The notes beneath the pieces are model-generated. The model searched no databases. It saw nothing but the letters and a program-made list of their open reading frames with translations, and was not told the origin of the DNA. Of a stretch of 64,000 bases of DNA, positions 1,644-38,700 are shown piece by piece. How positions within the stretch are numbered: position 1 is the stretch's first letter; every line of letters starts with the position of its first letter. The translations under genes and the position numbers were made by a program. This DNA is from an uncultured Candidatus Saccharibacteria bacterium (lineage in GTDB: Bacteria > Patescibacteriota > Saccharimonadia > Saccharimonadales > JAGQNJ01): NCBI GenBank assembly GCA_964493895.1, contig CAZBPY010000004.1:13271-77270 (forward strand), written 5' to 3'.

Positions 1644-2801
1644 ATGGCAAAAATAATGTTGGTTGAGGACGACAACTCGCTGCGCGAAATTTATGAAGCT
1701 CGCCTAGCCGCTGAAGGTTACACCGTGGTTTCGGCCAAAGATGGCGAAGAGGCTCTGGCAACTGCCCTCAAAGAGCACCCTGACCTAATTATTGCCGATG
1801 TTATGATGCCTAAAGTCAGTGGTTTTGACATGTTGGATATTTTGCGCTCGACTCCCGAGACTAAACATACCCGGATTATTATGTTGACAGCGCTTAGTCA
1901 AGCCGAGGATAAGGTACGAGCCGAAAAATTAGGCGCCGATCGTTACTTGGTCAAATCACAGGTCACCCTCGAGGATGTCACCCGCGAAGCCCGCGAAATC
2001 CTAGAGGAATTAGAAAGCCAGGCTGCGGCTACAGTGGCTAAAGTTGAGGGCAACGCCCCGACCGAAGCTCCGGCCGAAGCTGCGACCGAAGCTGAAACTA
2101 AAGCCGAAGCCAAGCCGGTTCCAACGACAACCGTTGAGAAATCTGATACCACCCCACCACCGACACCGGCACCAGTGGTCACCAAACCCTCTCAACCAAA
2201 AAAAGACAAAGATACGGCCCCTGAGCCAGTTCCCACACCGTCGCCAACTCCAACGATCACCTCAATTCCAGTGGCCGCTCCCGATGATGACACCAATGAT
2301 AAACCGGTCAATGATCAGGCTAAGGCTAATGATAAGCTAGCCGCGGCTGCTAAAGCTCTTAGTACTTCAGAGGGAGTCGAAAAGGCTGAGGTTAAAGAAC
2401 AGGTAGACGAGTTTATTGCCAGCAACCCAACCTTGTCATCATCCCCAGAACCGAACGACACAGCTACCGCAGCAGTTGAGAGCTTGACTAAATCAGAAGT
2501 TGGAAAAGCTAAAACCAGTCAGGAAAAAAAGAAGCAGCCAGTCCTGGATAAGGACAGTCAGGGCGGGCGCAGCTATGTTGCTGCCAATCAATCGCAAGAT
2601 CAGCCCGCCGGTTCGACTAACAGCGGTTCGTTAGAGCACACTAGAACCATCCAGCCAACTCCTGATTCCGAAAGAGCGGCCAGCAAACCTGATCTTAACG
2701 CCTTGCTAGCTAAAGAAGTGGCAATCGAGGGACAGGACAACCCACCAGTTGACACCGTAATTACACCAGATAACAGCGGTGAATCACCACCTACCGCTTA
2801 A
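1644..2801 (+). CDS. Response regulator: CheY-like receiver fused to a ~260-aa Pro/Thr/Ala/Glu-rich low-complexity tail with no recognisable output domain
   Basis: MLVEDD acidic pocket. Phospho-acceptor context DLIIADVMMP. LTALS and KLGADRYLVKS. Residues ~125-385 are compositionally biased (PPPTPAPVVTKP, TPSPTPTITS). Confidence 0.88.
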   Translation: MAKIMLVEDDNSLREIYEARLAAEGYTVVSAKDGEEALATALKEHPDLIIADVMMPKVSGFDMLDILRSTPETKHTRIIMLTALSQAEDKVRAEKLGADRYLVKSQVTLEDVTREAREILEELESQAAATVAKVEGNAPTEAPAEAATEAETKAEAKPVPTTTVEKSDTTPPPTPAPVVTKPSQPKKDKDTAPEPVPTPSPTPTITSIPVAAPDDDTNDKPVNDQAKANDKLAAAAKALSTSEGVEKAEVKEQVDEFIASNPTLSSSPEPNDTATAAVESLTKSEVGKAKTSQEKKKQPVLDKDSQGGRSYVAANQSQDQPAGSTNSGSLEHTRTIQPTPDSERAASKPDLNALLAKEVAIEGQDNPPVDTVITPDNSGESPPTA

Positions 2802-4814: not shown

Positions 4815-5453
4815 ATGGGTTTATTCGTTCGGCGCGATAACCAATCGGAAACTCAAACTTTATATAATACCGTCCACGAGAAGGTTCTATTAATTGTCGG
4901 TCTCGGAAATGTCGGCAAGCGTTACGAGGGCACCCGTCATAACATCGGTTTTGCTTGTCTGGATTTTTTTGCCGAGCAGCATAATTTTCCAGCCTGGTCG
5001 GAGAAGGCTGATCTGCATTGCTTGATAACTTCTCATGTTGAGGGCAGCACTAAACTCATTCTGGCAAAACCGGTGACTTTCATGAACGAATCCGGCCACG
5101 CCGTCTCCTCAGTCCAGCGCTATTTCAAGGTTAGTAATGATGAGACCTTGGTGCTGCACGATGAATTAGACCTGGATTTCGGCTTGATTCGAGCCCGCAC
5201 TGGCGGCGGCTCAGCCGGCAACAATGGCATAAAATCAATCATTCAACACTGCGGCGAAGATTTTAACCGCTTGCGGATAGGTATAAAAAACCACCAACTA
5301 GACAAGATTGACAGCGCCGACTTCGTGCTAGCCAAGTTTAATAAAGAAGAGAAAGCCTGCTTGCCCGAACTCTACCGTGAAGTATCGGCACTGCTATCTG
5401 AATACTCAGCTAGTCATCAGCTGCCGCATGACACCCGAAACTTCTTAGTATAA
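4815..5453 (+). CDS. pth: Peptidyl-tRNA hydrolase
   Basis: LIVGLGNVGKRYEGTRHNIGF, FMNESG and LHDELD motifs. 212 aa. Confidence 0.93.
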   Translation: MGLFVRRDNQSETQTLYNTVHEKVLLIVGLGNVGKRYEGTRHNIGFACLDFFAEQHNFPAWSEKADLHCLITSHVEGSTKLILAKPVTFMNESGHAVSSVQRYFKVSNDETLVLHDELDLDFGLIRARTGGGSAGNNGIKSIIQHCGEDFNRLRIGIKNHQLDKIDSADFVLAKFNKEEKACLPELYREVSALLSEYSASHQLPHDTRNFLV

Positions 5454-26904: not shown

Positions 26905-26932
26905 ATTGTATCAAACTTGTATATAAAGTCAA
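26905..26932 (-). promoter_or_regulatory. Promoter of the RHH-doc operon, predicted to give a leaderless mRNA
   Basis: Minus strand TTGACT (26932-26927, overlapping the glyQS stop), 16 nt, TACAAT (26910-26905). Only 6 nt separate the -10 from the ATG at 26898. Confidence 0.45.
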
Positions 26933-28302
26933 GCTTGCAGCCGCTTCGGCAAGTCTTTGATCTTGAGGCGTTCTTGCTTGGTGGTGTCGCGGTCGCGGAC
27001 CGTCACCGTACCATCTTCCAGGGTTTGGAAATCAATTGTCACACAATACGGGGTTCCGATCTCATCCTGGCGGCGATAACGCTTGCCAATATTGCCGTTG
27101 TCATCCCACTCGGTCGCCAGCTGCGGCGCCAAGTCTTCAAAAATCTGGCGAGCTTTTTTAACTAGCTCGGGCTTGTTTTTAAGCAGCGGGAAGACAGCCG
27201 CTTTGACAGGCGCTAAATCGCGATGCAGCTTCAACACAGTCCGCTCTTCCCCGTCTATTTCCTCAACCGTATAGGCGTCGCACACAACCGCTAGGAACAT
27301 TCGTCCCATACCAACGGAGGTCTCCAAAATCCACGGGATATATTTTTCTTGAGTAACTGGATCCCGGTAATGCAAGTCGGTGCCAGAGAATTTCTCGTGT
27401 TGCGTGAGGTCATAATCAGTACGGTCATGAACCCCTTCAATTTCATCAAAGCCCCACGACGGAAAGTTGTACTCAATGTCCCAAGCATCAGCCGCGTAAA
27501 AAACCAGATTTTCATGTTGTTTCCAGCGCAAGTTTTCTTCGCGCACGCCGATATCTAAATACCACTGCCAGCGTTCTTTTTTAATGCGCTCGTAATTTTG
27601 TTTGTTTTGATGCGGCGGAACGAAATATTGGGTATCAGCTTGTTCCATCTCGCGGGTCCTAAACAGGAAGTTTCGAGGGCTGATCTCATTGCGAAAAGCT
27701 TTGCCAATCTGAGCAATTCCAAACGGCACTTTCATACGAGTGGTATCAACCACATTTTTGAAATTGAGATAAATGCCCTGGCAAGCTTCGCCCGGCAAAT
27801 AAACCGGCCGGTCGTTCTTGCCGGTAAAATCACCCAGGTTCGATTGAACTAGCAGATTAAATTTAACTACCCTAGCAAAGTCTTTCTTGCCGCAGTTGGG
27901 ACACTTGATTTTATCACGATTGGCATCAAACAATTCATTAATTTCCTCTTCAGACATTTTCTCGTCAGCTGTGACACCGATTGCCTCCAACTCTTTGTCA
28001 GCACGGATGCGGTAATGGCAGTTCTTACATTCGGCCAATGGGTCAGAAAAGCCGCCAACATGCCCCGAAGCTTCCCAAACTTTTGGATGCTTGAACATGG
28101 CCGAATCCAATCCAACATAATCTGATCGTCTAGTAACATTAGCTTTCCACCAAGCCGCTTTTAGATTGTTAAGCAGCTCGACACCATAGGGCCCAAAGTC
28201 ATAGAGACCGGCTTCACCACCGTAAATTTCGCTACCCGGATACACAAAACCGCGCCGCTTGCACAGAGCGACAATATCATCCATAGAAACTTTTTTGCTC
28301 AT
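26929..28302 (-). CDS. glyQS: Glycine--tRNA ligase (homodimeric GlyQS type)
   Basis: 457 aa. MDDIVALCKRRGFVYPGSEIYGG N-terminus. Class II motifs (FRNEISPR, GVGMGRMF-like SVGMGRMFL). C-terminal anticodon-binding domain. Confidence 0.95.
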   Translation of the reverse strand: MSKKVSMDDIVALCKRRGFVYPGSEIYGGEAGLYDFGPYGVELLNNLKAAWWKANVTRRSDYVGLDSAMFKHPKVWEASGHVGGFSDPLAECKNCHYRIRADKELEAIGVTADEKMSEEEINELFDANRDKIKCPNCGKKDFARVVKFNLLVQSNLGDFTGKNDRPVYLPGEACQGIYLNFKNVVDTTRMKVPFGIAQIGKAFRNEISPRNFLFRTREMEQADTQYFVPPHQNKQNYERIKKERWQWYLDIGVREENLRWKQHENLVFYAADAWDIEYNFPSWGFDEIEGVHDRTDYDLTQHEKFSGTDLHYRDPVTQEKYIPWILETSVGMGRMFLAVVCDAYTVEEIDGEERTVLKLHRDLAPVKAAVFPLLKNKPELVKKARQIFEDLAPQLATEWDDNGNIGKRYRRQDEIGTPYCVTIDFQTLEDGTVTVRDRDTTKQERLKIKDLPKRLQA

Positions 28303-28323
28303 TTCAAAATCAAGTATAACAGA

Positions 28324-28663
28324 TTACACTTTGGTGAGCGTCAGGCGTCTGCCCAGAACCGCTGCTACTTGGGCCAACGTCTGGTACGTTGGGCTTGCCT
28401 GACCATTTTCAATTCTGGCAATCATGGCTTGAGTTACCCCAGCTTTTTTTTGCCAATTGCACTTGGGTCAGTTTCATCTCATGCCGGGCTTGAATGAATT
28501 GTATAAAGAAGTCGGTTCGATCTTTATAGCTGACCACGGACCCCTGTTGGAGCTTCATTTTCTGGTGCTCGGCGATCATATTTCCAGTTCTTGCTGCGGA
28601 TCTATTATGTAAGCCATTCTTATGATATACCTTAAAAGATATATCACGAAGACCCTGGCCCAA
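28324..28663 (-). pseudogene. XRE-family HTH gene interrupted by a +1 frameshift in an A8 homopolymer
   Basis: The ORF reads ...MKLTQVQLAKK and then leaves frame at AAAAAAAA (T8 on the + strand, 28444-28451). Removing one A continues AGVTQAMIARIENGQASPTYQTLAQVAAVLGRRLTLTKV to the stop at 28324-28326. Confidence 0.7.
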
Positions 28664-28672
28664 TGTGCTGGA

Positions 28673-29368
28673 CTAGTTAGTGGATTGCTTGACAAGAGAT
28701 TTAAGTAGCCCCTCGAGATCTTCGAGGATCTGATCGGCACCACCAACTACAGCAATTTTGGCTGGAGTTTCCGCCAGCAATAGACGCATCATTTTTATGT
28801 GGCTATCAGAATACAACCCAGATTGGTGGGCAAAAAAAGCCTGGGCTTCAAAATCGAATTGATAAGAAGTGTTGGGCTCTAATTTGGCACCGTAAATGTC
28901 GGTGTTGAGATTCGGAGTGTGCCCGCCTAGCCGCAGGGCTTGCATGTACAACCATGATTCGGCTAAAACAATGCTCAGCGAAGTGTTATCCAAAGTCGCC
29001 AGCGTTCGCAGTAGGACATGGTAATAATCAGCCTCGCAATCATCTTGAGTGATTTTATCAATCAGTTTCAAGGCATTGTAGCCGGCTGTAGTCCGGTTGA
29101 TGTCGCTAACAATGCGACCATAATGGGTTACCAGACGAGCTGACACTAGAGTGCCGATGTCGCGTCGACCGACCAAAAAACTGATTTCTGATACACTAAA
29201 TAGCTCTATGCCGCCGGCCAGTTTGCTTTTGACCCGCCGAACACCTTTAGCCATTAGACGCAGTTTGCCATGTTCGGGCGTGATAATAGTGATGATCCGG
29301 TCAGCCTCCCCGAAGTTGATCCGGCCAAGAATTATGCCCCTGGTTTGTTGGCTATTCATGGTTAACAC
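28673..29368 (-). CDS. recO: DNA repair protein RecO
   Basis: GIILGRINFGEADRIITIITPEHGKLRLMAKGVRRVKSKLAG (OB-fold N-terminus). 231 aa. Confidence 0.9.
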   Translation of the reverse strand: MLTMNSQQTRGIILGRINFGEADRIITIITPEHGKLRLMAKGVRRVKSKLAGGIELFSVSEISFLVGRRDIGTLVSARLVTHYGRIVSDINRTTAGYNALKLIDKITQDDCEADYYHVLLRTLATLDNTSLSIVLAESWLYMQALRLGGHTPNLNTDIYGAKLEPNTSYQFDFEAQAFFAHQSGLYSDSHIKMMRLLLAETPAKIAVVGGADQILEDLEGLLKSLVKQSTN

Positions 29369-29738
29369 CTATACTTTCATCGACTAGCCAGCAAAGCTTT
29401 TCCAGACTAGTGTCAGATTTATAGTAATAGCCATTGATGCCAAGTTTGCTCTGGTCAGCGCTAGCCAAGTTTAGCCGGTCAGACTCCAGGCTGCTTAAAA
29501 TTAGTACCGGAATGGCTTGCCAATCGCTGTGGCTGCGAAGTTCATAGAGAAACTCGACACCGTTGTGATGCGGCAGTTGAATTTCCAGAATAATTAAATC
29601 TGGCAGTGCGGCATCGGTAGCATTGATTGCCGACTGGGCATCCTGCGCTCTTAGTACGTGATGACCTTCAGCCATCAAAGCCGAGGCGTAGGTCTTCGCC
29701 AAAACATGATCGGGTTCGACCAGTAACACCTGTGACAT
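29352..29738 (-). CDS. Stand-alone receiver-domain protein with a substituted phospho-acceptor (pseudo-receiver)
   Basis: Receiver fold with LLVEPD and PDLIILEIQLP, so Glu sits where the acceptor Asp is expected. The conserved S (VLILSS) and K (YYYKSD) are retained. Confidence 0.8.
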   Translation of the reverse strand: MSQVLLVEPDHVLAKTYASALMAEGHHVLRAQDAQSAINATDAALPDLIILEIQLPHHNGVEFLYELRSHSDWQAIPVLILSSLESDRLNLASADQSKLGINGYYYKSDTSLEKLCWLVDESIGVNHE

Positions 29739-29761
29739 ACTATATATAGTACCGCGTTTGC

Positions 29762-30454
29762 CTACAGTAACGCTAGTTGTTGGCTGGGTAGCAGCGTGGC
29801 AGCCAGTCCGGTTTGGCGGCCGGACTTTATAGCCCGCAGCGGTGCTTCCATACCGGCTAGCAAACTGTCAGCAATATAAATTCCGACTCCACTGTTTTGG
29901 GTAAAGCCGCTGGCTGGCTGCCGCGCTTGGCCAAAAAGCTTCCGAGCTACTTGCAAGTCTTCAGCTGAAACATTAGCCGTCGGGCTGACTACCCCCGTGT
30001 CAATGCCCTCTTCGGATGACTTAGCTATTAAAGTCAATGATTGCTTGGGCCGGCGTAAGCCACCGGTCAAAAAGGTGTAGGCCAAGGCCAGCAAGGCGGC
30101 TTTAAGCCCCGATTCATTGGCCATAACTTGCGGCATCGACCCGGTCACTTTGATGTCCAGACGACTGTCATAAAGTTTGGACAAATCATACAGTTCTTGA
30201 GCCACATCGTAGAGAATCGCTGTGACTGACACTGGGGTCAGTGGCAGTTGTAGTTGCGGACTACTGGTAATCAGCAAATAGCTATCGATCAGTTTCAGAC
30301 CGCTATTGGCAGCGATTTCTATCGACTGCAAGTTCTCGGTGGTATCCTGTGACTCGGCTAATTCGGCTAGCCGGGCAATTTGGGTCAGCGGCAGTTTCAG
30401 CTCATCTGCCAGAGATTTCCATAGGTCCACCCCTGTTATTTGTGGCTCGCTCAC
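29762..30454 (-). CDS. Cytoplasmic histidine-kinase-like protein lacking the phospho-acceptor His (pseudo-kinase)
   Basis: H-box-like SLADELKLPLTQIARLAELAE has Asp at the His position. No Asn is recognisable in the N-box region (AALLALAYTFL). G-box remnants IDTGVV and SGVGIYIADSL. No TM segment. Confidence 0.6.
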   Translation of the reverse strand: MSEPQITGVDLWKSLADELKLPLTQIARLAELAESQDTTENLQSIEIAANSGLKLIDSYLLITSSPQLQLPLTPVSVTAILYDVAQELYDLSKLYDSRLDIKVTGSMPQVMANESGLKAALLALAYTFLTGGLRRPKQSLTLIAKSSEEGIDTGVVSPTANVSAEDLQVARKLFGQARQPASGFTQNSGVGIYIADSLLAGMEAPLRAIKSGRQTGLAATLLPSQQLALL

Positions 30455-30496
30455 CGCCTGCTATCCTCACTTATCTAGTGAGTCCAGTATAACCAA

Positions 30497-31162
30497 CTAA
30501 GGCGTAAATTTGAAGTTAGCCAGAATATTATCGAAGAAATCGCTGCGGAATTGATCGCCCTCGGTCCACAGTTTAATAGTCTTGTCGCGAAGCGGTAACA
30601 AAACCAGCGTGCCGGTTTTATTCTCACCCAGATCTCCGGTGATTTGGGTGCCAATAACATTATCGACATTAACTGGTTTGTAGGGAGCTGCCTGTGCTGC
30701 ACCTTGTTTGACCCGGCCATCAAAACTGCGCAGTTCGTCGGCATAGCTGCTATTAGTTACTTGGACTCGAAGAGCATAGTTGGCTCCAGTTTCTACGCCG
30801 GGCACAAAATTGGGCTGGAAATAACCATCAACAGCCAGCGAGCCGTTGTCACGCTGGTCAACATAGGCTGACCAAGTTTTCGGGTATTTTATTGATAATG
30901 TGCCGGCCGATGATGGGCTTTGGTATTCCTTCAAGGGTTGTTTTTCGCGCTGGATAAATTCATTGTCCTTTTCGGTAGCCGTTTCCTGCTCAGCTACCTC
31001 GACAGCTGTAGCAATTTTTTGATCAACATTGTTTTTGTAATCCTGTCGTCCGGCGTAAGCCCACAGGGCAAAACCAAGGGCAGCAAAAAAGAAAACCACC
31101 GCCAAGATTAACGGAATTAATAGTACGTTTATTGAGCCCTCTTGCCGGCCCGAGATCTTCAT
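30497..31162 (-). CDS. Membrane-anchored extracytoplasmic hypothetical protein
   Basis: N-terminal TM VLLIPLILAVVFFFAALGFALWAY followed by a ~170-aa beta-rich domain. Confidence 0.6.
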   Translation of the reverse strand: MKISGRQEGSINVLLIPLILAVVFFFAALGFALWAYAGRQDYKNNVDQKIATAVEVAEQETATEKDNEFIQREKQPLKEYQSPSSAGTLSIKYPKTWSAYVDQRDNGSLAVDGYFQPNFVPGVETGANYALRVQVTNSSYADELRSFDGRVKQGAAQAAPYKPVNVDNVIGTQITGDLGENKTGTLVLLPLRDKTIKLWTEGDQFRSDFFDNILANFKFTP

Positions 31163-31177
31163 ACTGCTTATGTTATA

Positions 31178-31693
31178 TCAAAATTGGTACAGGTGCAAAC
31201 CGGTCTTTTTCGACGATTTCACTGGCTTACGTGAATTAATAGTAAAAGCAAAACTCACCAACTTTACACCCTTCCCTTTTTTGCCGCCGTATTCTTGGAT
31301 GATTTTGTTATCAAGCTTTTCCATGTATGGTTGCAGCAGAAAAACAAAAACACCATCAGCTGGAGGCCAGCGACGACGCCAAAAATTAGTCCAGTAAATT
31401 TTAACCTGTTTGCGGTAGCGCCAGGTTACCATCCTCGAGTAAATCACCAGCAGCGGATTTAACTCGAAACCGACGACTTTGAGACCACGCTGGGCGGCGG
31501 CTTTGAGCACCCGACCGTCGCCGCTGCCTAGCTCGATCAAGGTTTGTCCGGGCTTTAAATCCAGCAAATCCAAGGCCGCCGCCACCTTTGGGCTAAGTGT
31601 CGGTAGGAACGGCGCGCCAAAAATAATCACAAAGCTGAAAGCCACAAAGACAACAGCCACGATAACTAGTGCTATTTGCCAAGCAAGTTCCAT
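31178..31693 (-). CDS. Class I SAM-dependent methyltransferase with an N-terminal TM helix
   Basis: Motif I LIELGSGDGRVL and an acidic post-I motif (VGFELN). The start overlaps the xseB stop (TAATG). Confidence 0.6.
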   Translation of the reverse strand: MELAWQIALVIVAVVFVAFSFVIIFGAPFLPTLSPKVAAALDLLDLKPGQTLIELGSGDGRVLKAAAQRGLKVVGFELNPLLVIYSRMVTWRYRKQVKIYWTNFWRRRWPPADGVFVFLLQPYMEKLDNKIIQEYGGKKGKGVKLVSFAFTINSRKPVKSSKKTGLHLYQF

Positions 31694-35524: not shown

Positions 35525-36925
35525 CTACTCAATAGCCTCAATGACCACTGCTGTGCCATCATCTATTTTTCGCGAAACTCCAACAAGCTTATGAGCAACT
35601 TGTCCAGCATTGCCCCTGCAAGTTTGTATAATTTCTTGATCACTAAGAATTTCATAACCCCTATCTCCAGTAATGCCGTCGGTAACTAAAAGTAGACGGT
35701 CGCCCCGGTTAAGAGCTACTACCCCAGTTTGCCTTACGCCTTTGCTGCCGTCACCTAGGTGGTTATACAGAAAGTGTCCCTCACCTTCATCGCGTGACAA
35801 TTGTCGTAACTGGCTACGGCTATCTACCAGGTATATTCGTGAATCGCCGACAGAAGCCCATGCCGCATAGGGATGACTATTCCCCAAGGCATCCCGTATG
35901 TAGAGCACCTCTGAAATAAGTCCAGTTGTAATACCGCCTTCTCCAGATTTTTTAACAGCCGCATTAGCCCTTTCAAGCATTAATCGAATCCGTTCACGAG
36001 CGGCATCTTCTGAATCGACAGTTTTGCCAGTAATACTTAGGCTTTCGACCGCTGATTTTGCGGCTTGGGCAGCTGCTCGTCCACCGCTGTGTCCGCCGGC
36101 TCCGTCAAAAACAGCAAACAAGCCCTTTTCTTCGGATACATATGAAGCATCTTGGCCCTTCCTGACCTTCTCATCATGTCCTGCTCTAACATCTGGCACT
36201 AACAATTCACTGCCGGCTTCGGCGGACGGCTCGCCTACTGACTGTAGTTCTATGGGCAGTACCGGCTTGACAGTTGATTGGTCAGTTAAAACTTCAACTG
36301 TTGTTTCGTCATTGTCTAACTTGCTTTTTGCCTGGACAACACCGGTGCCATTCAATGACACATCAGTTACCTTAAGGCCCCTTTCAGTTACCTCAAAACT
36401 GACATGGCGACGCGAGACTAAAGGGCTGCTTGCCAGTTCCCGCAGACCTAGTCCAAGGCCGCTAGACAGATCGACTTCCAATATAATTTGTCCATCTTTC
36501 TGTATTATAAATCCGTTTCGTCCTATCGTTAAGCTATCCCCTGGCTCTGAACCAATACTAAGGGGGATCTCTTTTAACCTCTTAGCCCAGTCCTGGGACT
36601 CTGGCATGCCGTTAATAACCGGGGCTGACGGTGGACACAATACATACCCGACATCCGGTCTATAAGCAACTTTTAATCGATTGTCCGTTTGGCTACCGGA
36701 AGGCTGATCCATCTGAGGTAATTCAATGGTCGCTACAATGGCTGCGTCAGTTTCTTCATCTATGCTTAATGGCTGGTCAGGATCAAGCAGCGTGGATTCA
36801 TGTCGTAAAACAGCTTTTTCGATACTGTCCAGTTGTTCAAGTTGCAGGAGTTGTTGGTCTTTATGGTTCGGTATTCTGTCGTTGTCCATGCTACTAATAA
36901 TAGCATAGAAATGACATTTAGTCAA
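35525..36925 (-). CDS. FHA domain plus PP2C-family Ser/Thr phosphatase
   Basis: FHA: LTIGRNG...VSRRHVSFEVTERGLKVTDVSLNGTGV. PP2C: FAVFDGAGGHSGG, ASVGDSRIYLV, LLLVTDGITG. Confidence 0.85.
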   Translation of the reverse strand: MTKCHFYAIISSMDNDRIPNHKDQQLLQLEQLDSIEKAVLRHESTLLDPDQPLSIDEETDAAIVATIELPQMDQPSGSQTDNRLKVAYRPDVGYVLCPPSAPVINGMPESQDWAKRLKEIPLSIGSEPGDSLTIGRNGFIIQKDGQIILEVDLSSGLGLGLRELASSPLVSRRHVSFEVTERGLKVTDVSLNGTGVVQAKSKLDNDETTVEVLTDQSTVKPVLPIELQSVGEPSAEAGSELLVPDVRAGHDEKVRKGQDASYVSEEKGLFAVFDGAGGHSGGRAAAQAAKSAVESLSITGKTVDSEDAARERIRLMLERANAAVKKSGEGGITTGLISEVLYIRDALGNSHPYAAWASVGDSRIYLVDSRSQLRQLSRDEGEGHFLYNHLGDGSKGVRQTGVVALNRGDRLLLVTDGITGDRGYEILSDQEIIQTCRGNAGQVAHKLVGVSRKIDDGTAVVIEAIE

Positions 36926-38319: not shown

Positions 38320-38700
38320 CTACTGCAAACCCAGGTGGTGTTTGATGCGCTCAATAACATCGGCTATGACAACCTGGGATTTGACCATGTAATCATCAGC
38401 TCCTAATTTGTCGGCTTTGTCCTTGTCAGTATCTTGCGACAAAGCTGTTAACATAACCACCTTGATATTTGCTGTTTCAGGAGTATTACGGAGGATATCC
38501 AAGACATCAAAGCCGCTAACTTTGGGCATCATGATATCAAGAACGATTAGATCTGGCCGAAACTCAATCGCCGCAGCCAGGGCGTCCTCGCCATTGGGAA
38601 CACGGCGAACATTAAAGCCCTCGGTTTCCAGACGAGTCTTGTAGACATTGGCCAAACCGTCGTCATCTTCAACCAGCAGTATCTTTTTTGGCGGGTTCAT
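38320..38700 (-). CDS. Stand-alone CheY-like receiver protein
   Basis: ILLVEDDD, DLIVLDIMMP, LTALS, KLGADDYMVKS. A close paralog of the receiver domain at 1644-2020. Confidence 0.9.
   Translation of the reverse strand: MNPPKKILLVEDDDGLANVYKTRLETEGFNVRRVPNGEDALAAAIEFRPDLIVLDIMMPKVSGFDVLDILRNTPETANIKVVMLTALSQDTDKDKADKLGADDYMVKSQVVIADVIERIKHHLGLQ

Follow-up and report, generated by a model that had tools for sequence, protein, structure and literature searches.

A pair of adjacent genes in a 64,000-nucleotide stretch of DNA from an uncultured Candidatus Saccharibacteria bacterium (assembly GCA_964493895.1, contig CAZBPY010000004.1, positions 13,271 to 77,270; the whole stretch is hereafter termed the window) encodes a kinase-like protein, psHK, and a receiver, psRR, in which the phospho-accepting His of the former is replaced by Asp and the phospho-acceptor Asp of the latter by Glu. 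We favour the view, with a probability of roughly 0.6, that the two proteins are a fossilised HisKA-type kinase and OmpR-PhoB-like receiver that have been reused as a phosphorylation-independent protein-interaction module, and thus represent a working system rather than junk. What is new here is that the two partners of a dedicated, co-encoded pair are both dead, with carboxylates at both phosphoryl positions throughout the class, and that the pair is apparently essential in a genome of roughly 1 Mb that contains a dispensable real two-component system. The two genes and their key positions in the window are as follows.

29762-30454, minus strand: psHK, pseudo-histidine kinase, a soluble protein of 230 amino acids (aa) with a dimerization and histidine phosphotransfer (DHp) domain and a degenerate catalytic and ATP-binding (CA) domain, no sensor or transmembrane segment and no His (open reading frame (ORF) call, Pfam, PDB alignment, AlphaFold model, family profile).
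30266-30433, minus strand: DHp helical hairpin of psHK, residues 8-63, H-box ADELKLPLTQIARLAEL (AlphaFold helices; weak HisKA match over residues 11-63).
30404-30406, minus strand: GAT codon of psHK Asp17, at the phospho-His position (alignments).
29792-30238, minus strand: CA-like domain of psHK, residues 73-221, with a conserved lid, LFGQARQP (alignments and model).
29765-29791, minus strand: family-specific C-terminal tail of psHK, LLPSQQLALL (family alignment).
29352-29738, minus strand: psRR, pseudo-receiver without the acceptor Asp, 128 aa, consisting of one receiver domain and lacking an output domain (ORF call, Pfam, PDB and fold matches).
29583-29585, minus strand: GAA codon of psRR Glu52, at the phospho-acceptor Asp position (alignments).
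29709-29717, minus strand: psRR Glu8-Pro9-Asp10, the acidic (DD) pocket, with Pro in place of the second acidic residue (alignments).
29418-29495, minus strand: the switch residues kept in psRR, Ser82 (T site), Tyr104 (aromatic switch, K-3) and Lys107 (K site) (alignments and model).

An earlier note on this DNA, made from its letters, had likened the 230-aa protein by eye to the DHp and catalytic core of histidine kinases, and both alignment and modelling bear this out. The psHK gene starts with a GTG codon, preceded by GAGGA 9 nucleotides (nt) upstream. When the protein was compared with the PDB using phmmer, the segment LADELKLPLT, which contains the H-box SLADELKLPLTQI, aligned with IAHEIRTPIT of CusS, placing D17 on the His; a profile of 48 family sequences likewise aligned this column with the ShkA and CpxA His, and matched DivL too. 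There is no His anywhere in the window protein. Pfam reported HisKA below its cutoff (E = 1.6e-4, 22.1 bits against 26.9 bits), HATPase_c was matched neither by psHK nor by any of the 48 family members, and NCBIfam gave kinase matches that were sub-threshold only. The AlphaFold model, generated from the family alignment (predicted local distance difference test score (pLDDT) 87.5; predicted template modelling score 0.87), contains helices 8-35 and 38-63 followed by an alpha/beta domain, the DHp hairpin and CA (Bergerat) architecture of histidine kinases. Its best fold matches in the PDB were HK853 in complexes with RR468, and then CusS, EnvZ-type chimeras, DivL and RetS, with Foldseek template modelling (TM) scores of 0.65-0.72 against the HK853, DivL and CusS cores. 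The lid (LYGxARQP in the family) is conserved and has a low pLDDT, and the tail (LPSQQLxL) is invariant. Canonical kinases have no conserved tail like that of psHK.

The residues that mediate catalysis in histidine kinases have been lost from this scaffold. Aligned with CusS, psHK has A123 and T127 at the N-box Asn positions and V156 in place of the acidic residue of G1, and of the glycine-rich motifs only remnants persist, G2 reading NSGVGIYIA with G189 and G191 kept. The HisKA phosphatase motif, E/DxxT/N, has its Thr or Asn four residues after the His (H+4) (PMC12963549), a position occupied by L21 in psHK. A pseudo-histidine kinase is a histidine kinase homologue that lacks at least one of ATP binding, autophosphorylation, phosphodonor and phosphatase function (Collins and Childers, summarised in PMC12632262), and psHK, devoid of the His, the N-box and G1 residues and the H+4 Thr/Asn, can be assigned to this group from its sequence. 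Canonical ATP binding is predicted to be lost because psHK has neither the N-box Asn nor the G1 Asp; likewise, the protein should not carry phospho-His, given the Glu/Asp at this site, or display HisKA phosphatase action, given the Leu at H+4. The description of psHK as a dead kinase is thus apt at the level of sequence, and the database label ‘HAMP domain-containing histidine kinase’ is misleading for this protein.

The receiver matched Pfam Response_reg with 51.4 bits (cutoff 30.2 bits), and its AlphaFold model (pLDDT 90.9) adopts the (beta-alpha)5 fold with TM scores of about 0.8 to RR468, YycF, DivK and KdpE. E52 of psRR aligned with D52 of KdpE and D53 of RR468, and E8-P9-D10 with E8-D9-E10 of KdpE. 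The phospho-acceptor Asp at the end of beta3 and the acidic DD pair that coordinates Mg2+ are therefore absent, and the conserved Thr/Ser and Lys are present, Ser82 lying at the end of beta4 and Lys107 at the end of beta5. Profile and PDB alignments thus return Asp where the His would be and Glu where the acceptor Asp would be, together with the E-P acidic pocket and the retained Ser and Lys that had been picked out by eye. Pseudo-receivers are proteins recognised computationally as receivers that lack at least one of five catalytic residues, and aspartate-less receivers (ALRs) are those without the acceptor Asp (PMC12632262); psRR, which has lost this residue and the second member of the acidic pair (DD2) and has kept the T and K sites, would be classified as both. 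Glu52 and the Pro at the metal-binding DD2 should render phosphorylation at the canonical site impossible and disrupt the metal site.

These substitutions are widespread within a single lineage. Homologue searches recovered 120 kinase-like and 90 receiver relatives at 33-68% identity, and the few that were named came from Saccharibacteria/Saccharimonadales. One genome per GTDB species was scanned with the receiver motif EFLYE[LFI]RS[YH], which was selected because the psHK alignment has no conserved stretch of 7-10 residues, and 335 genomes encoded it, a count biased toward receivers that keep this motif. When 1.8 billion cluster representatives were searched with a profile, about 300 psHK clusters (50% identity) were matched at E < 1e-30; the 150 that were listed are all 168-259 aa long, mostly 225-250 aa. 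A further search for homologues, using a divergent receiver profile, added another 120 family members, all environmental, with no cultivated strain among the matches. Residue counts were pooled over 267 distinct receivers and 359 distinct kinase-like proteins (348 of which aligned at the His site). In the receivers the acceptor position is Glu in 264 and Asp in three, the first acidic position Glu in 265, DD2 Pro in 263 and the T site Ser or Thr in 266; the K site is Lys in all 267, the aromatic switch Tyr or Phe in 226, and position 10, adjacent to DD2, is Asp in 246 and Asn in 18. At the His site of the kinase-like proteins the counts are Glu 285, Asp 40, Gln 11, His 4 and Ala 3, an acidic residue thus occurring in 325/348 (93%). 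Position H+4 is mostly Leu (220/348), the second N-box Asn is replaced by Ser, Ala, Thr or Val and the G1 Asp by Tyr or Phe, the G2 Gly residues are kept (G191 in 343/359) and Gln226 in the tail is found in 359/359. Glu is thus the family norm at the His site, Asp marking the clade to which the window belongs, and the combination of Glu in both partners is present in 73/79 complete pairs. As only 0.9% of HisKA domains lack the His and 2.0% of receivers the Asp (PMC12632262), an adjacent, doubly substituted pair over hundreds of species is far beyond chance. These data point to purifying selection on the pair, and suggest that the common ancestor of Saccharimonadia already had carboxylates at both phospho-sites.

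The genetic context of the pair is equally stable. The 80 best of the 335 genome matches were compared as loci, nearly all of which are labelled Saccharibacteria/Saccharimonadia, and almost none departs from the order xseA-xseB-methyltransferase-membrane protein-psHK-psRR-recO-glyS. The psHK and psRR ORFs are intact and full-length in every locus that spans the position. A handful of contigs or proteins (L028, L049, L071, L079, P0414 and P0431) bear the labels Burkholderiaceae, Chlamydiae, Dormiibacterota, Verrucomicrobiia or Binatia, yet the Saccharibacteria-type cluster is complete in them, and mis-binning of Saccharibacteria contigs is the probable reason. The neighbours of the pair in the window are as follows.

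28673-29368, minus strand: recO, which overlaps the end of psRR and is immediately downstream of it in all loci (ORF call, Pfam, locus comparison).
26929-28302: glyS, which follows recO.
30497-31162, minus strand: tm221, a membrane-anchored protein of 221 aa with one N-terminal transmembrane helix and an outside domain of ~150 aa, directly upstream of psHK.
31178-31693, minus strand: mt171, a small (171 aa) class I S-adenosylmethionine (SAM) methyltransferase-like protein with an N-terminal transmembrane helix (weak CMAS, DOT1 and PCMT matches).

It could be argued that the two genes are simply decaying remnants, pseudogenes in progress, or that the substitutions are sequencing or assembly errors, as both codons are one nucleotide from the canonical ones (GAT versus CAT; GAA versus GAT/GAC) and Pfam barely recognises psHK. 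Such decay would not, however, leave ORFs intact, synteny fixed and family-specific residues such as Gln226 and Lys107 invariant, nor would it affect genes whose syntenic counterparts are fitness-critical in another Saccharibacterium, Southlakia epibionticum (see below). Sequencing error is ruled out because the same substitutions recur in hundreds of independent assemblies. The conservation data thus refute this explanation, to which we attach next to no credence, and show that the substitutions, whose conservation among orthologues the earlier note had named as a check, are not the product of random decay.

Departures from the consensus are rare. The H-box His is still present in four psHKs (AHELRMPL and AHDLRLPL, for instance; L081 508-1574, L082 2405-3536, L085 684-1791 and L086 209-1258), which have a CA domain that is equally degenerate, and each is followed by a receiver with E-P-D and Glu52 and by recO. 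It was considered whether these loci preserve a functional ancestral state, a His-containing psHK with an Asp-containing receiver. This possibility was rejected, as in 4/4 cases the partner is a Glu52 receiver; the loss in the receiver thus appears to be more universal than that in the kinase. Two receivers possess the acceptor Asp together with Pro at DD2 (L072 and L063, about 5001-5390), pairing with Asp and Glu pseudokinases, respectively, and may be reversions. A phmmer search with the core of the window's real kinase, which would reveal members nearer to canonical kinases, found none closer than E = 0.03.

The importance of the pair to growth can be gauged from transposon insertion sequencing (Tn-seq) of S. 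epibionticum ML1, which contains the same cluster (Wang et al. 2023, Table S1, PMC10633639). Here SEML1_0242/0243 are xseA/xseB, and genes were called non-essential (NE), growth-defective (GD) or essential (ES) at T0/T1/T2 (PMC10633639). The gene in the psHK slot, SEML1_0246, was GD/GD/ES, its insertions falling from 32 in the input to 8, 3 and 1, and the adjacent response regulator, SEML1_0247 (366 bp), was NE/GD/ES, with 10 insertions in the input and then 2, 1 and 0 (PMC10633639). Upstream, SEML1_0245 (663 bp), a hypothetical protein with a Mog1p/PsbP-like fold that is enriched in Patescibacteria, was ES/ES/ES, and SEML1_0244, a class I SAM methyltransferase, was NE; downstream, RecO (SEML1_0248) was NE/NE/GD with 25-36 insertions kept, and GlyRS (SEML1_0249) was essential (PMC10633639). 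The depletion of SEML1_0246/0247 is not a consequence of polarity, because recO, which is situated between the pair and glyS, tolerates insertions. The text of that study makes no mention of two-component proteins (PMC10633639). SEML1_0246/0247 are apparently orthologues of psHK/psRR, as judged by synteny, gene sizes, weak Pfam scores and a shared generic NCBI name. The conditional E-value of SEML1_0246 for HATPase_c is 1.1e-9, compared with 1.5e-29 for the canonical kinase, and is thus about 20 orders weaker; the same generic name is carried by P0362, a verified His-less family member (AEQLKLPL), and every family member examined is non-canonical. Through this syntenic counterpart, which was called essential after passaging, the pair is probably essential and would serve a growth-critical function.

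The window also encodes conventional two-component proteins, which, as the earlier note had stated, are canonical in their motifs.

84-1625: canonical kinase (motifs SHEMRTP, NLFDNAVKY, DTGSGI and GGTGLGL).
1644-2801, plus strand: canonical receiver (LVEDD...D), beside the canonical kinase.
38320-38700: canonical receiver (LVEDD...D).

The receiver at 1644-2801 has, by eye, a low-complexity tail of ~260 aa rich in Pro, Thr, Ala and Glu and no obvious output domain; its Southlakia counterpart, SEML1_0317, comprises only 130 aa. An explanation that we consider unlikely, if worth attention, is that psHK acts mainly on the canonical kinase (SEML1_0318 in Southlakia), through DHp heterodimers or sequestration of its regulators and with psRR as a cofactor, in a manner similar to RetS on GacS or DivL on CckA. 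The psHK model indeed matches the RetS and DivL cores as well as it does active kinases, only one canonical HisKA kinase was seen nearby per genome, and pseudo-histidine kinases are known to plug into real two-component networks (PMC12632262). In Southlakia, however, the canonical PAS kinase SEML1_0318 was NE at all time points and its regulator, SEML1_0317, NE/NE/GD (PMC10633639), and thus both tolerate insertions that the pseudo pair does not; an essential role exerted purely via the canonical kinase would require that its unrestrained activity is lethal. Furthermore, the co-conservation of psHK with its own Glu-containing receiver points to a dedicated partner.

We therefore return to the proposal that psHK and psRR form a phosphorylation-independent module, derived in the ancestor of Saccharimonadia from a kinase/receiver pair. 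It is likely that psRR still docks, through its alpha1 face, on DHp helix 1 of psHK. In HK853 and RR468 (PDB entries 4jas and 4jav) the specificity positions are A268/A271/T275 and L14/I17/N21, respectively; these correspond to H+8 Gln, H+11 Arg and H+15 Leu of psHK and to alpha1 residues L13, T16 and A20 of psRR, all strongly conserved, and it is this conservation on both sides that suggests docking. Glu52 and the loss of DD2 may keep psRR in a state resembling the active one, much as the D10A/D53E changes do in engineered PhoB, and the receiver is, by this analogy, probably locked ‘on’. The conserved carboxylate at the His position of psHK would be part of the docked interface rather than of catalysis, and output would occur by protein binding, through psRR and/or the conserved lid and C-terminal tail of psHK. 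A phosphomimetic receiver in a scaffolding pair, as the earlier note had suggested, would fit this scheme. The module may work with the membrane-anchored PsbP-like protein encoded directly upstream.

Several observations weigh against this proposal. Glu often mimics phospho-Asp, yet not always, as there are cases in which this has been disproved (PMC12632262). The binding of psRR to psHK is deduced from adjacency, fold and conservation only, and mutual information with average product correction across 102 psHK-psRR pairs (effective number of sequences about 94) mainly reflected phylogeny, with no signal from the interface, the top pairs mostly involving one clade-marker column, psRR position 70 (His/Tyr). 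The orthology of the Southlakia genes is judged from synteny, sizes, weak Pfam scores and a generic name, not from residues. Finally, no gene of the cluster evolves faster than psHK, although it is always intact; its median identity to the window protein is 37%, compared with 47% for psRR, 49% for RecO and 47% for GlyRS.

In ~70/80 loci tm221 lies directly upstream of psHK, most of the others being cut short on that side, and Pfam returned no match for the protein. Its counterpart in Southlakia is SEML1_0245, and it is a possible third member of the module. As its cytoplasmic segment extends to only about 12 residues, however, a role for this PsbP-like protein as the input to the pair is speculative. 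The methyltransferase bears on a further explanation, in which the pair still signals by covalent modification at some other position: phosphorylation of Asp10 or of a receiver Ser/Thr, for which either the canonical kinase or a Ser/Thr kinase would be responsible, or reversible methyl-esterification of the two carboxylates by mt171. The conservation of Asp10, the (nearly) invariant Ser/Thr82 and Lys107, and the inclusion in the cluster, at most loci, of a class I methyltransferase that weakly matches PCMT/DOT1 are all consistent with such a mechanism. Asp10 is, however, Asn in 18 orthologues and is thus not an obligatory acceptor, and the methylation variant is difficult to reconcile with the absence of mt171 from six loci in which the pair is present (L019, L028, L030, L045, L047 and L065), with its non-essential Southlakia counterpart (SEML1_0244), and with an N-terminal transmembrane helix and a protein substrate that is only putative. 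We regard signalling by such a modification as very improbable. A phosphate-free switch is also conceivable, in which carboxylates (the DHp Glu/Asp, and Glu52 with Glu8/Asp10 of psRR) would meet at the docked interface and the complex would be gated by, for example, a bridging divalent cation, pH or reversible carboxyl methylation by mt171, coupling the essential PsbP-like protein to an essential cytoplasmic process of epibiotic Saccharibacteria; we view this as decidedly doubtful, if a little less so than covalent modification.

Each half of the pair has precedents. Pseudo-histidine kinases, exemplified by DivL, RetS and PsmA, and Glu-containing receivers without the acceptor Asp, such as plant pseudo-response regulators (PRRs), Rim15p and bacterial ALRs, are already established. 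RetS of Pseudomonas aeruginosa, a structural match of psHK, similarly uses a kinase fold for DHp-mediated binding (to the GacS DHp) instead of phosphotransfer, but it acts on another kinase and is a large, membrane-bound hybrid sensor that includes periplasmic and receiver domains. We know of no dedicated pseudo-receiver partner of RetS. In Caulobacter crescentus, DivL is a HisKA-type DHp-CA protein without the phospho-His that serves as a platform for a single-domain receiver, DivK, which is active and phosphorylated, and information flow in this system is reversed (PMC4211667). Among the best matches of psHK, by both fold and profile, is the DivL core (4q20), and DivK is likewise among the best of psRR. 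DivL differs, however, in that its His site is occupied by Tyr, it is anchored in the membrane and it takes input through PAS domains, and DivK is a genuine receiver that can be phosphorylated, whereas psHK, with Glu/Asp at this site and no input domain in a total of 230 aa, is paired with a receiver whose Glu is permanently unphosphorylatable. Thus psHK is not of the DivL type. In the Streptomyces hybrid pseudokinase PsmA the H-box His is replaced by Glu in S. venezuelae and by Asp in S. coelicolor; the protein has non-conserved ATP-binding motifs and no phosphatase motif, and works by protein-protein interaction (PMC12963549). In contrast to the pair described here, PsmA is a large hybrid that keeps its receiver Asp, varies at the His site (Glu, Asp, Gln, Val or Tyr) and is not essential (PMC12963549); in psHK this residue is acidic in 93% of the family, the Asp-less receiver is separate and the syntenic Southlakia pair is called essential.

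With respect to psRR, the same two positions of an OmpR/PhoB-type receiver are changed in PhoB D10A/D53E (PDB 2jb9, a ‘constitutively-active double mutant’), which matches psRR in both sequence (E 1.2e-8) and fold. That protein is a laboratory mutant of a DNA-binding regulator, whereas psRR is natural, consists of a single domain and has Pro at DD2. Plant PRR clock proteins, fungal Rim15p and bacterial ALRs likewise retain the receiver fold, contain Glu for Asp (the commonest replacement) and act independently of Asp phosphorylation (PMC12632262), but are multi-domain proteins.

The remaining features of the region relate to its transcription and to neighbouring functions. On the minus strand a match to the sigma-70-like promoter consensus, TTCAAA-17-TATACT, is present at 30486-30514 (consensus match only), within the end of the upstream gene and ~30 nt before the psHK start; it could provide psHK-psRR-recO with a transcript of their own. 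The overlap of 17 nt between psRR and recO, reported earlier, holds for the GTG start of recO but shrinks to 8 nt from the ATG three codons later, at 29359, which is the better supported start because it has GGTG 6 nt upstream and the Pfam RecO_N match begins at residue 4. Scans of the window for tRNAs and Rfam families gave no matches, and a terminator scan was at background level. The spacer between recO and glyS (28303-28672), which is 370 nt in the window and contains an 84-aa ORF with a stretch resembling a helix-turn-helix by eye, ranges elsewhere from an overlap to about 3 kb and is the single variable junction of the cluster. An ORF of 466 aa at 35525-36925 on the minus strand has, by eye, an FHA-like segment and a PP2C-type phosphatase motif (FAVFDGAGGH), and would indicate Ser/Thr phospho-signalling in the same genome.

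Currently the way in which bacterial pseudo-receivers are switched on and off is described as ‘a mystery’, almost all of the studied examples being without a partner, and only 2/20 of the bacterial atypical regulators discussed are not orphans (PMC12632262). The psHK-psRR pair represents a minimal system, comprising two small, soluble, co-encoded and cognate-looking proteins that have been kept through extreme genome reduction. Its apparent counterpart in the genetically tractable S. epibionticum offers a direct test bed for how two-component folds may signal without phosphate, and flags an unannotated, growth-critical function in Saccharibacteria.

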